Positions 2,392 to 4,754 of a stretch of DNA of 4,754 nucleotides are shown in pieces. The stretch is from the IMG/VR virus record IMGVR_UViG_2690316131_000003, one strand, 5' to 3'. The translations under genes were made by a program, and so were the position numbers. This stretch comes from a virus. Lineage: Duplodnaviria > Heunggongvirae > Uroviricota > Caudoviricetes. The notes below the pieces were generated by a model. It saw nothing but the letters and a program-made list of their open reading frames with translations. It was not told the origin of the DNA and made no database searches. The number at the start of each line of letters is the position of its first letter. Within the stretch, counting starts at the first letter, position 1.

Positions 2392-2994
2392 TCATGGCAT
2401 GGCCATGAGCATTTTCACGTCCGCATCACCGTCTGCTGACGTCTGTGACACGCCACCCCGCACCGCTGCCGGTGAATGATTCGCCATGAAATGTTCAAAC
2501 AGGGCGGTTGTGGATGCAGAGACCGGTTCGGCCTTACCTGATCCCGCAGCCAGCACAGCCCGGGCGTTCTCCACGGTCATTCCCGGGCAGGCAGCCAGTT
2601 TTTCAGCCTGCGCTTCTGCCCCTTTTGCCTCATCCAGGGCCATGATCTGATCACGAAGTGAGGGCCCGGCATCCGCCAGTGGTGCAGCCGCCAGGATCGG
2701 GCGGGCTTTTTCCACCGTCATCTCCGGCATCGCCGCCAGCGTTGCCGCCAGTTGTTCACGACCGTTCGCTTCTTCACACGCCATAATGCGATCGGCTTCA
2801 CTCTGCGCGGATGCCACCGGCTGCTGCGGTGCCGCCGCGGCCAGAATCGCCCGGGCCTGTTCAACGCTCATGCCCTGTTGCCCTGCCAGCATCGTGGCAA
2901 GCTGTTCACGTCCTTTCGCTTCCTGACACGTCAGGATCCCCATCACTCGCTGGTTCTCCTGCACTGCGGCTTCCGTTGCAGTTAATTGCGGCAT
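2392..2994 (-). CDS. Nu3: Nu3-like scaffolding protein, translated from an in-frame internal start within C (200 aa, co-terminal with C)
   Basis: Internal ATG at 2994..2992 (Met302 of C), preceded by a consensus AGGAGG SD (plus 2999..3004 cctcct) 4 nt upstream; local context GGTMPQLTA... parallels the lambda Nu3 start inside C (established for lambda); downstream holds the scaffold motif. Confidence 0.6.
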   Translation of the reverse strand: MPQLTATEAAVQENQRVMGILTCQEAKGREQLATMLAGQQGMSVEQARAILAAAAPQQPVASAQSEADRIMACEEANGREQLAATLAAMPEMTVEKARPILAAAPLADAGPSLRDQIMALDEAKGAEAQAEKLAACPGMTVENARAVLAAGSGKAEPVSASTTALFEHFMANHSPAAVRGGVSQTSADGDADVKMLMAMP

Positions 2995-3897
2995 AGTGCC
3001 TCCTCTGACATTACTGTTCAGCGCCGTGGCCATCACACTGATGGCATCCGACGCATTGATTAATTCATCCGCCAGCCCGGCCTCAATGCCGGACTGACCT
3101 TCAAAAACGGCGGCCTCTGTTCCCGTGACGGCATCAACAGACAGACCGGTAAACATCGCCACTTTTTCGGCAAACATCCGGCGCGCCGCATCAATGCGCT
3201 GCTGCATGTCCTGGCGAACCTCTGCCGGTAAGGCTTCAAACTGATTGCCATCCACCTTGTGCGTCCCTGAGTAAATCAGCGTGATATCCACACCGGCCTG
3301 CGCCAGATGACCGGCATAGCTGACATGGCTCATCATCACGCCAATGGAGCCGATACGGGATGTCTGGGTAACCAGCCGTCGGGAGCAGGCCGACGCCAGC
3401 AGCATGGCTGCAGAACAGGCCGTGTCATTGCACAGTGCCCAGACCGGCTTCTGCTGACGGAGGCGGTAAATCATGTCAGCGCAGTCAAACGCGCCGGCGG
3501 CCTGCCCGCCCGGACTGTCAATGTCCAGCAGTACGCCCCGCACCTGGCTATCCGCCATTGCCTGCTGAAGACAGGCGACAATACCGTCATAGCCTGTCAT
3601 TCCGGAAAATGGCCGCATACCCCCCAGCCGGTGCACCAGCGTGCCGGTCACCGGCAGTACAGCAATACCGTTCACCACCCTGTAAACACGGGCCGGTCGT
3701 TTACCTCCGGCCATGTACTCGTCCGTTTCAGCCAGCATTCCGGGAGCATCAAACTGTACCTGCTGTTGTGGTACCGAAAGACTTGCTGCCCCCATCTCGC
3801 GCCCGAGCGCGCAAAAGAAAACCCGCGCATAGGCGGGCTCCAGAAGCAGCGGTTCATTGAATGCTGCGGCAATAATGTGTGAAAGATTACGTCTCAC
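2392..3897 (-). CDS. C: Head maturation protease / minor capsid protein C (S49 SppA-like peptidase family) with C-terminal scaffold (Nu3) domain, 501 aa
   Basis: 501-aa ORF; similarity to lambda gpC as recalled (FNEPL.LEPAYARVFF, NGIAVLPV.GTLV, SGMTGY.GI, LLD.D.PGG...AGAFDCAD.I, KPVWAL.ND..CSA..LLASA.SRRLVTQT.R.GSIGVMM.H, ITLIYSG.HKVDGN, GLADEL.N..DAI); start is GTG at 3897..3895 with GAGGAG about 10 nt upstream, overlapping the portal-fragment stop. Confidence 0.88.
   Translation of the reverse strand: MRRNLSHIIAAAFNEPLLLEPAYARVFFCALGREMGAASLSVPQQQVQFDAPGMLAETDEYMAGGKRPARVYRVVNGIAVLPVTGTLVHRLGGMRPFSGMTGYDGIVACLQQAMADSQVRGVLLDIDSPGGQAAGAFDCADMIYRLRQQKPVWALCNDTACSAAMLLASACSRRLVTQTSRIGSIGVMMSHVSYAGHLAQAGVDITLIYSGTHKVDGNQFEALPAEVRQDMQQRIDAARRMFAEKVAMFTGLSVDAVTGTEAAVFEGQSGIEAGLADELINASDAISVMATALNSNVRGGTMPQLTATEAAVQENQRVMGILTCQEAKGREQLATMLAGQQGMSVEQARAILAAAAPQQPVASAQSEADRIMACEEANGREQLAATLAAMPEMTVEKARPILAAAPLADAGPSLRDQIMALDEAKGAEAQAEKLAACPGMTVENARAVLAAGSGKAEPVSASTTALFEHFMANHSPAAVRGGVSQTSADGDADVKMLMAMP
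2512..2949 (-). repeat. Three diverged tandem copies of a ~47-53-aa scaffold motif inside the C/Nu3 coding region
   Basis: Protein-level repeats: RVMGILTCQEAKGREQLATMLAGQQGMSVEQARAILAAAAP / RIMACEEANGREQLAATLAAMPEMTVEKARPILAAAP / QIMALDEAKGAEAQAEKLAACPGMTVENARAVLAAG; DNA copies are clearly diverged, so not recent slippage. Confidence 0.6.
3088..3744. repeat. Direct repeat copy A (within the intact C gene), 657 bp, 654/657 identical to copy B
   Basis: Base-by-base comparison with 4098..4754 at constant offset 1010; only mismatches at 3583, 3619, 3681. Confidence 0.9.
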
Positions 3898-4090
3898 GTG
3901 GTGTTGTCTCCTCTTCCGGCCTGCGACTCTCCGCTATCTGCTGCTGATACGCCTGCGCTATCCACACCGGACGTGAGAGTCCGGCTTTTTGCCGCTCTGC
4001 AGATTCCCTGACCTGCTGGCGGAAAATGTCCTGATAATCCTCGCCCATCAGCGCCAGCTCTTTCTCATACGTGCTCAGTCCGGCCTCAAT
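3887..4090 (-). pseudogene. B: Orphan 3' fragment of the portal gene (lambda gpB-like C-terminal ~67 codons), fused out of frame to C-prime sequence
   Basis: Reading frame IEAGLSTYEKELALMGEDYQDIFRQQVRESAERQKAGLSRPVWIAQAYQQQIAESRRPEEETTPRET* ends with a stop (3887..3889) overlapping the C start, as at a portal-protease junction; it resembles what I recall of the lambda gpB C-terminus; upstream in the same frame (4091..4261) is out-of-frame C-prime sequence, not portal. Confidence 0.55.
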
Positions 4091-4107
4091 GCAAAAAGCC
4101 GGACTGA
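4075..4107. other. Duplication junction: 10-bp perfect inverted repeat (4075..4084 / 4098..4107) flanking a 13-nt spacer that contains the 7-bp novel insertion 4091..4097
   Basis: TCAGTCCGGC ... GCCGGACTGA; one arm lies in the portal fragment, the other in the C-prime copy; the native C copy has only an imperfect version (CAGCCCGGC / GCCGGACTG with 6-nt spacer). Confidence 0.8.
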
Positions 4108-4754
4108 CCTTCAAAAACGGCGGCCTCTGTTCCCGTGACGGCATCAACAGACAGACCGGTAAACATCGCCACTTTTTCGGCAAACATCCGGCGCGCCGCA
4201 TCAATGCGCTGCTGCATGTCCTGGCGAACCTCTGCCGGTAAGGCTTCAAACTGATTGCCATCCACCTTGTGCGTCCCTGAGTAAATCAGCGTGATATCCA
4301 CACCGGCCTGCGCCAGATGACCGGCATAGCTGACATGGCTCATCATCACGCCAATGGAGCCGATACGGGATGTCTGGGTAACCAGCCGTCGGGAGCAGGC
4401 CGACGCCAGCAGCATGGCTGCAGAACAGGCCGTGTCATTGCACAGTGCCCAGACCGGCTTCTGCTGACGGAGGCGGTAAATCATGTCAGCGCAGTCAAAC
4501 GCGCCGGCGGCCTGCCCGCCCGGACTGTCAATGTCCAGCAGTACGCCCCGCACCTGGCTATCCGCCATTGCCTGCTGAAGACAGGCGACAATGCCGTCAT
4601 AGCCTGTCATTCCGGAAAATGGCCGCATCCCCCCCAGCCGGTGCACCAGCGTGCCGGTCACCGGCAGTACAGCAATACCGTTCACCACCCGGTAAACACG
4701 GGCCGGTCGTTTACCTCCGGCCATGTACTCGTCCGTTTCAGCCAGCATTCCGGG
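4086..4754 (-). pseudogene. Truncated duplicate of the protease gene 5' portion (C-prime): would encode C residues about 52-269 in-window, then FLH-stop; 5' end beyond window
   Basis: ORF 4086..4748 translation is identical to C residues 54-269 then diverges after ...FEGQSG into FLH*; the frame stays open to the window edge (APGM... matches C residues 51-54); retains the putative protease core (CSAAMLLASA region) but lacks the scaffold domain. Confidence 0.7.
4098..4754. repeat. Direct repeat copy B (truncated C-prime), 657 bp, runs to the right window edge so its true length is unknown
   Basis: Identical to 3088..3744 except 4593, 4629, 4691; a further 11 nt (4080..4090 = 3077..3087) are identical at offset 1003 on the other side of the 7-bp insertion 4091..4097. 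Confidence 0.9.

Follow-up and report, generated by a model that had tools for sequence, protein, structure and literature searches.

Three diverged copies of a predicted helical module in the scaffold region of a phage-21-type gpC/Nu3 protease-scaffold gene

We analysed a 4,754-nucleotide stretch of tailed-phage DNA (Caudoviricetes; IMG/VR record IMGVR_UViG_2690316131_000003), hereafter the window, in which a segment at 2512-2949 of the minus strand (codons 317-462 of a 501-residue open reading frame) had been flagged as holding three tandem copies of a motif in the Nu3-like C-terminal part of a lambda gpC homologue. All real genes of the window lie on the minus strand and make up a lambda-type head module (Table 1), with the gpC homologue placed between the portal gene and the genes for the decoration and major capsid proteins, as in lambda-like head modules. 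The window is 99.9% identical to chromosomal prophages of E. coli, and its 501-residue coding sequence is the same DNA as the WP_053899249.1 locus in NZ_CP148357. From its S49 domain, its position in the head module and its conserved C-terminal module and tail, the gene is recognisable as a lambda-type gpC/Nu3 protease-scaffold homologue, and the repeats within it can be identified as an old triplication that is already on record in phage 21.

The three repeat units (R1, R2 and R3) are about 37 residues long, start 50 and 47 residues apart, are separated by variable linkers of 10-14 residues and share the consensus I-h-x-h-x-E-A-K-G-R-E-x-L-A-x-x-L-A-x-x-P-G-M-T-V-E-x-A-x-x-h-L-A-A-A-P. Pairwise local alignment of the units under BLOSUM62 gave scores of 105, 86 and 97 (z = 16.3, 12.4 and 14.2), that is, 12-16 standard deviations above those of 2000 composition-preserving shuffles (mean about 25, standard deviation 5), none of which (0/2000) reached an observed score. 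Between units, 53-64% of the amino acids are identical, and 16 of about 37 columns are invariant in R1-R3. This self-alignment bears out the three tandem copies proposed in the first-pass annotation, which was made from the letters alone. No model in Pfam or NCBIfam covers the unit; only PHROGs 8940, 8399, 1999, 17040 and 16406 do so, and two of these, 8940 (Nu3) and 8399 (scaffold), match the window protein in 3-4 stretches. The tail that follows R3 carries the conserved patches F-x-x-F-M and D...L-L/M-M-x-x-P, both of which are also found after lambda's single unit. R3 of the E. coli/phage 21 lineage has the sequence KGAEAQAE, as opposed to KGRExLA in nearly all other units of all lineages; without the near-invariant Arg, R3 may be functionally degenerate or specialised.

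A search of GenBank phages with tblastn returned 21 records that match the scaffold region, among them the classical lambdoid phage 21. Its head gene operon record (M81255.1) contains gene 5, encoding 501 residues, with a nested gene 6 of 200 residues preceded by a putative ribosome-binding site, and within the nested scaffold gene 6 it lists the repeat_region features "Tri1 box", "Tri box" and "Tri3 box", with the note "function unknown; putative". These boxes (5542-5645, 5682-5792 and 5823-5936 of M81255, corresponding to residues 324-358, 371-407 and 418-455 of gp5) fall onto R1-R3 when transferred to the window (Table 1). Phage 21 gene 5 aligns with the window coding sequence over 1506/1506 nucleotides without a gap at 97.6% identity in both DNA and protein, so that the window copy, which is prophage-type, differs from it at 36 nucleotides only, and the flanking genes are shared as well (portal 4, shp/D, 7/E and the FI and FII homologues). 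The complete phage 21 genome deposited in 2022 (OL657228) names the two products "capsid protease/scaffolding protein" and "scaffolding protein" (PMC9119081). By these matches the window is a phage-21-type (genus Jouyvirus) head module, and R1-R3 are the annotated Tri1, Tri and Tri3 boxes. The triplication is already known, being annotated in the phage 21 operon record, and it is neither new nor unusual. Of 5426 complete E. coli genomes, 1870, about one third, carry the repeat region, in prophages, and in 1865 of them at least 80% of the 618-nucleotide scaffold region is covered. Among the best matches of 60 records drawn across the ranking (O157:H7, O104:H4, ST131 and Nissle 1917 included), 58 extend over the whole region, one had a 57-nucleotide deletion and one was truncated.

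The DNA of the units has diverged much further than their protein sequence. Nucleotide identity between units is 59-69%, identity at third codon positions is 33-47%, and where two units share a residue the codon is the same in under half of the cases. Neither Tandem Repeats Finder nor a DNA repeat finder reported the triplication in the window, because the unit copies are only 59-69% identical in DNA. With synonymous sites near saturation between units, conservation therefore acts on the protein and not on the DNA. We measured conservation as the mean frequency of the majority residue in 80 three-copy homologues, reduced to 36 by dropping pairs more than 90% identical, and obtained 0.83, 0.76 and 0.76 for R1, R2 and R3, next to 0.83 for the protease domain; the three linkers, into which the indels fall, scored 0.47, 0.52 and 0.35. 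In Salmonella homologues, which are about 68% identical overall, R1, R2 and R3 each find their best match in their own positional counterpart, and the triplication is therefore older than that split. On these comparisons the triplication is old and every unit is under purifying selection at the protein level, which agrees with the earlier proposal of diverged DNA copies descending from an old triplication under selection.

Table 1. Features of the window (positions on the 4,754-nucleotide stretch)
Feature	Position	Strand	Remarks
Portal C-terminus	3887-4094	minus	
501-aa S49 prohead protease/scaffold coding sequence (lambda gpC homologue = phage 21 gp5)	2392-3897	minus	start GTG
SppA/ClpP-like protease domain, aa 77-293	3019-3669	minus	Pfam, SppA structures, homologue alignment
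Shine-Dalgarno-like AGAGGAGG	2999-3006	minus	4 nt upstream of nested ATG
Nested in-frame scaffold open reading frame, 200 aa, M302-P501	2392-2994	minus	ATG 2992-2994; = phage 21 gene 6 (Nu3 counterpart)
Repeat unit R1, aa 317-355	2833-2949	minus	overlaps phage 21 Tri1 box (window 2824-2927)
Linker 1, aa 356-369	2791-2832	minus	Ala/Pro/Gln/Ser-rich, variable, indels, low pLDDT
Repeat unit R2, aa 370-406	2680-2790	minus	= phage 21 Tri box (window 2677-2787)
Linker 2, aa 407-416	2650-2679	minus	variable
Repeat unit R3, aa 417-453	2539-2649	minus	= phage 21 Tri3 box (window 2533-2646)
C-terminal tail, aa 454-501	2395-2538	minus	sequence comparison, AF2
gpD-type decoration protein	2008-2355	minus	PF02924
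gpE-type major capsid protein, 342 aa	922-1950	minus	PF03864
FI homologue	502-918	minus	PF14000
FII-like head-tail joining protein	156-509	minus	PF05354

The protease part of the 501-residue protein is supported by several matches: Peptidase_S49 (PF01343) at residues 146-293 in Pfam (E=1e-34), the PHROG 53 head maturation protease (E=3e-228) and the SppA structures 3rst and 4kwb, both by sequence in a PDB search (E about 1e-15) and by fold in a Foldseek search with the full-length model (E=8e-14 to 4kwb), in which SppA/ClpP matches predominated. Ser162, a candidate nucleophile, is invariant in 80 homologues, and we take it to be aligned with the active-site Ser of SppA. Antisense open reading frames on the plus strand over the repeats (2486-2650, 2752-2985 and 2811-2996) found no support as genes.

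Upstream of the units, an in-frame start scan of the sequence showed that AGAGGAGG and the ATG at M302 are identical to the annotated start of phage 21 gene 6, so that phage 21 and the window share the nested 200-residue scaffold open reading frame together with its putative ribosome-binding site. The AGAGGAGG element overlaps conserved Gly-Gly codons, G299 being invariant and M302 nearly so among homologues. Lambda has a counterpart, AGGAGG-GCGA-ATG, at codon 309 (coordinate 5342); the RefSeq start of lambda nu3 lies at codon 239 (5132) and has a weaker upstream signal than codon 309, and the profile of PHROG 8399 ("head scaffolding protein") spans 131 positions, which is the length of lambda M309-V439. 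A strong Shine-Dalgarno sequence followed by an ATG inside the C gene is thus, as far as sequence can tell, conserved between the phage 21 lineage and lambda. Should translation also begin at M302, the protease (gp5) and the 200-residue scaffold (gp6) would each contain the array.

The full-length AlphaFold2 (AF2) model, computed from an 80-sequence alignment, has a mean predicted local distance difference test score (pLDDT) of 70 and a predicted template-modelling score (pTM) of 0.47, and its protease domain is SppA-like. Each unit is modelled as three short helices with a pLDDT of about 75-82 (residues 307-323, 331-338 and 345-354 for R1), and pLDDT drops below 50 at residues 358-364 in linker 1 and at 453-460, just past R3. 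Helices are also predicted in the tail at 461-474 and 492-498, mostly with low confidence, the block-mean pLDDT being 34-59 over residues 451-501 and below 50 over 475-501. In this model the array has a beads-on-a-string appearance. A model of R2 as a single unit, made with an alignment of 85 diverse units, predicts a compact mini-domain and reached a pLDDT of 85.7 and a pTM of 0.63, with helices at unit residues 5-10, 19-26 and 33-42. Fold searches with this single unit returned only sub-threshold matches, all to protein-protein modules of a generic three-helix kind (UBA-, RuvA-III- and TS-N-like). The UBA-like and RuvA domain III mini-bundles scored below significance against the unit at 5-20% sequence identity, and we know of no functional link between them and the unit; assignment to UBA or to another named fold was dropped on the strength of these scores. 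A PDB sequence search with the 501-residue protein matched the protease domain only and nothing over the units. Lambda Nu3 is reportedly called intrinsically disordered in the title of a published paper, in contrast to the folded unit predicted here.

With a profile built from the window's three units we counted units among relatives. In the 120 closest clusters at 90% identity, 3 units were counted in 92 clusters, 2 units in 25, 4 units in two and 6 units in one, and close relatives as a whole hold forms with 2, about 2.4, 3, 4, 5 and 6 units. Among more distant relatives, proteins of about 497-508 residues from Salmonella, Klebsiella, Lelliottia and Trabulsiella carry 3 units (71 clusters), a 538-residue form that is common in E. 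coli, Citrobacter, Salmonella, E. albertii and E. marmotae carries 4 (38 clusters), and the rare 568- and 578-residue forms carry 5. Judged by the profile, copy number is not fixed, relatives having 1 to 5 units and rarely 6; the triplication, put forward in the first-pass annotation as a departure from lambda, is accordingly one of several 3- to 5-copy forms that are common in enterobacterial prophages. Two-unit proteins of 451 residues contain R1/R2 hybrids, in which no fewer than two distinct crossover points can be told apart, and a 551-residue protein contains an R3/R2 hybrid. In the five-copy gene at 3501-5237 of locus L008 (GCA_040149825.1), units 2 and 3 are identical in DNA over 108 nucleotides, as against 71-80% for the other pairs, a pattern that marks the very recent duplication of one unit within an array of four that is itself old. 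The hybrid units and the DNA-identical duplicate show that unit number changes by recurrent unequal crossing-over.

Farther afield, the profile found 359 clusters at E<=1e-3 among 1.84 billion representatives at 50% identity. A single unit was seen in 136 of the 150 matches listed (of the 359), so that in sequence space as a whole the single-copy state prevails. Among the 54 listed matches of at least 380 residues a handful was inspected, and in all of these an S49 protease carries the unit at its C-terminal end; the shorter matches look like fragments or free-standing proteins. Within the lambda-type scaffold region, the repeated unit is the only stretch whose conservation can still be recognised in distant relatives. 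Clustering at 50% collapses the enterobacterial 3- to 5-copy proteins into very few clusters, and the ratio of single-copy representatives is not a frequency; the idea that multi-copy forms are very rare (one copy in 53/54 full-length representatives of the 50% clusters) was refuted by a second homologue search. Four short proteins of 194-223 residues (P0124, P0145, P0232 and P0255) have the module in two or three copies and no protease domain; they may represent separate scaffold proteins from other groups of phages, or else incomplete gene calls.

The repeat region of the C gene seems prone to rearrangement. A 657-residue protein from E. coli O145:H28 RM12581 (P0001) has an in-frame tandem duplication of residues ~274-429 that yields six units, and in proteins of 721 and 577 residues (P0084 and P0085) the array is joined after R3 to unrelated C-terminal sequences. 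A 482-residue form with an in-frame deletion of 19 residues (57 nucleotides) inside R2 occurs in P0032, in related clusters and in a complete genome (H149; NZ_CP163451, 4903009-4903569), and P0032 has the most contigs (at least 1000) among the representatives of close relatives. By alignment spans, none of the 20 isolated-phage records with almost full coverage of the region has the deletion. The variant may mark a defective prophage lineage that has spread widely, or an allele that is tolerated. Further partial deletions give forms of 472 and 382 residues.

A separate anomaly lies at the upstream end of the window, where the last 660 nucleotides (4095-4754) are a 99.4% copy (4 mismatches) of the C-gene interior at 3085-3744 (residues ~52-271). 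The duplicated segment is fused to the portal C-terminus with the join at 4091-4105, which is an exact inverted copy of 3978-3992; at the join there is a 17-nucleotide near-identical stretch, CAGYCCGGCCTCAATGC, that codes for IEAGL in both genes and is followed by the six extra bases AAAAAG. Phage 21 differs from the window in lacking this partial duplication, and none of the complete E. coli genomes with a matching record spans the junction (0/1874 with a coverage of at least 80%). The arrangement has the look of an artefact, from chimeric assembly or from template switching, or else of a rare rearrangement in which co-resident prophages took part.

What might the units do? Most likely they serve as modules for binding protein, by which scaffold and protease are tethered within the prohead, and we consider it probable, on balance, that both parts of this account hold jointly, namely that the window carries an old triplicated array of the phage 21 type and that its units serve as such binding handles. 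Each unit would fold alone into a small three-helix bundle and act as a handle whose most probable partner would be the inner face or the N-arm of the E-type major capsid protein. If the M302 start is used, the protease gp5 (few copies) and the scaffold gp6 (many copies) would both carry the array, which could then give the two proteins a multivalent hold on the interior of the prohead during assembly, up to the point at which the protease digests the array. Extra units would raise avidity or reach and leave head geometry unchanged. A compilation of yeast two-hybrid and literature data lists E, C, B and Nu3 itself as interactors of lambda Nu3 (PMC3224144).

A more specific version, which we put forward as possible but tentative, is that the Tri unit is an autonomous UBA-like three-helix handle for capsid or portal and that enterobacterial lambda-like phages tune the valency of scaffold and protease by lengthening or shortening the array (1 to 5 units) through unequal crossing-over. 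If this were true, nature would have provided an allelic series in which the evolving trait is scaffold avidity and not capsid geometry.

Alternatively, the units could be self-association modules that oligomerise gp6 or Nu3 and recruit the protease to the scaffold core with no capsid contact. The same compilation that gives Nu3 as its own partner also lists Nu3-E (PMC3224144), and the present evidence does not discriminate between partners. Were the units to bind one another, pairing within one molecule would be a competing reaction in arrays of 3-5 copies, yet the AF2 model is without confident packing between units (pTM 0.47, linkers below 50). We judge this possibility unlikely.

Another possibility is that copies beyond one are neutral, a tolerated spacer with no role of its own that arose through slippage or unequal recombination, the region being rich in Ala and prone to repeats. 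That forms with 1 to 6 units exist would fit, as would the widely seen 482-residue form with its 19-residue R2 deletion in at least 1000 contigs and the 472- and 382-residue deletions. Against it, conservation in the 36 non-redundant homologues is much the same for R2 and R3 as for R1 and the protease, positional orthology has been kept between the E. coli and Salmonella lineages, and 53-64% of the residues have been retained although synonymous sites are close to saturation. All 20 phage records that cover the region nearly fully (97-100% of the query, with almost equal spans on the records) appear by alignment spans to keep three full units, and 58 of the 60 sampled E. coli best matches extend over the whole region. 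Taken together, these observations make neutrality of the additional copies improbable.

The first-pass annotation had also raised the idea that scaffold copy number affects prohead size, and proteins that control capsid size exist in other systems, to judge by the titles of papers on P4 Sid and PLE TcaP. The 4- and 5-copy genes (loci L006 and L008) lie in a syntenic module of terminase, W, portal, C, D, E, FI and FII, and the E protein of both loci has 342 residues and is 82% identical to that of the window, to which the 341-residue lambda E is 60% identical. Across lambda (1 unit), the window and phage 21 (3), L006 (4) and L008 (5), the E-family capsid proteins thus measure 341-342 residues at 58-99% identity, and a D-type decoration protein and the same gene order accompany them at 1, 3, 4 and 5 copies. 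This constancy of the major capsid protein lends no support to size determination, and the viability of lambda-21 hybrid phages suggests comparable head geometry; that unit number sets prohead size or T number is, in our view, very improbable. Still less credible is an action of the boxes at the DNA or RNA level as binding, recombination or regulatory elements, for which their annotation as repeat_region features and the CII-site pattern matches listed nearby in OL657228 might speak, given that the DNA copies are 59-69% identical with third positions near random, that no tandem DNA repeat was detected and that it is the protein motif that is kept in relatives as distant as the 50% clusters. 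The data thus disfavour both the size-determinant and the DNA-level explanation. An RNA element in the window was rejected, an Rfam scan being without matches.

Relatives offer a natural copy-number series of 1, 2, 3, 4 and 5 units, with head modules that are syntenic in other respects. Scaffold contacts in the lambda system are still poorly defined, and such a series could be used to ask which partner the unit binds and whether valency affects procapsid nucleation, protease loading or assembly fidelity.

Lambda itself marks the single-unit end of this series. The profile of the window's units finds one unit in lambda gpC (NC_001416), at residues 364-399 (independent E-value 1.5e-17), and no second one even at E<=10, as opposed to three in the window; the lambda unit sits behind a longer Ser/Thr/Ala-rich linker. 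The first-pass annotation was right on the single lambda copy and on the difference in length from lambda gpC of about 60 residues (501 versus 439, a difference of 62). The two proteins are about 53% identical over the protease part, and lambda shares with the window the layout of the protein (an S49 protease, then a scaffold region that includes the conserved module and the C-terminal tail), a putative nested in-frame scaffold gene and the gene order B-C/Nu3-D-E-FI-FII. As to whether lambda and most relatives have the same three copies, lambda differs and many relatives have three or more. The C homologues of enterobacterial prophages (such as the Gifsy-1 gpC homologue, Salmonella proteins of 497-508 residues and E. 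coli/Citrobacter proteins of 538 residues) have the window's architecture, synteny, variable linkers and tail and differ from it in unit number, which is 3, 4 or 5; in the 538-residue lineage the units are far more alike in protein (e.g. ...PEAKGREQLAQ.LA.QPGMTV.QAK...).

Beyond this family, the unit may be likened as a short helical C-terminal scaffold module to the C-terminal helix-turn-helix of P22 gp8, the C-terminus of the 80alpha scaffold and the C-terminal domain of P2 gpO, an analogy of kind, since PDB sequence and fold searches found no sequence similarity or significant fold similarity between the unit and these domains. The scaffolds of P22 and 80alpha bind coat protein via small C-terminal helical motifs. 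In P2, as in lambda, the scaffold is fused to the protease, and the helical module is presumed to be a tether to the capsid interior. P22, 80alpha and P2 scaffolds have one such motif each and no tandem array, whereas the phage-21-type protein of the window carries three.
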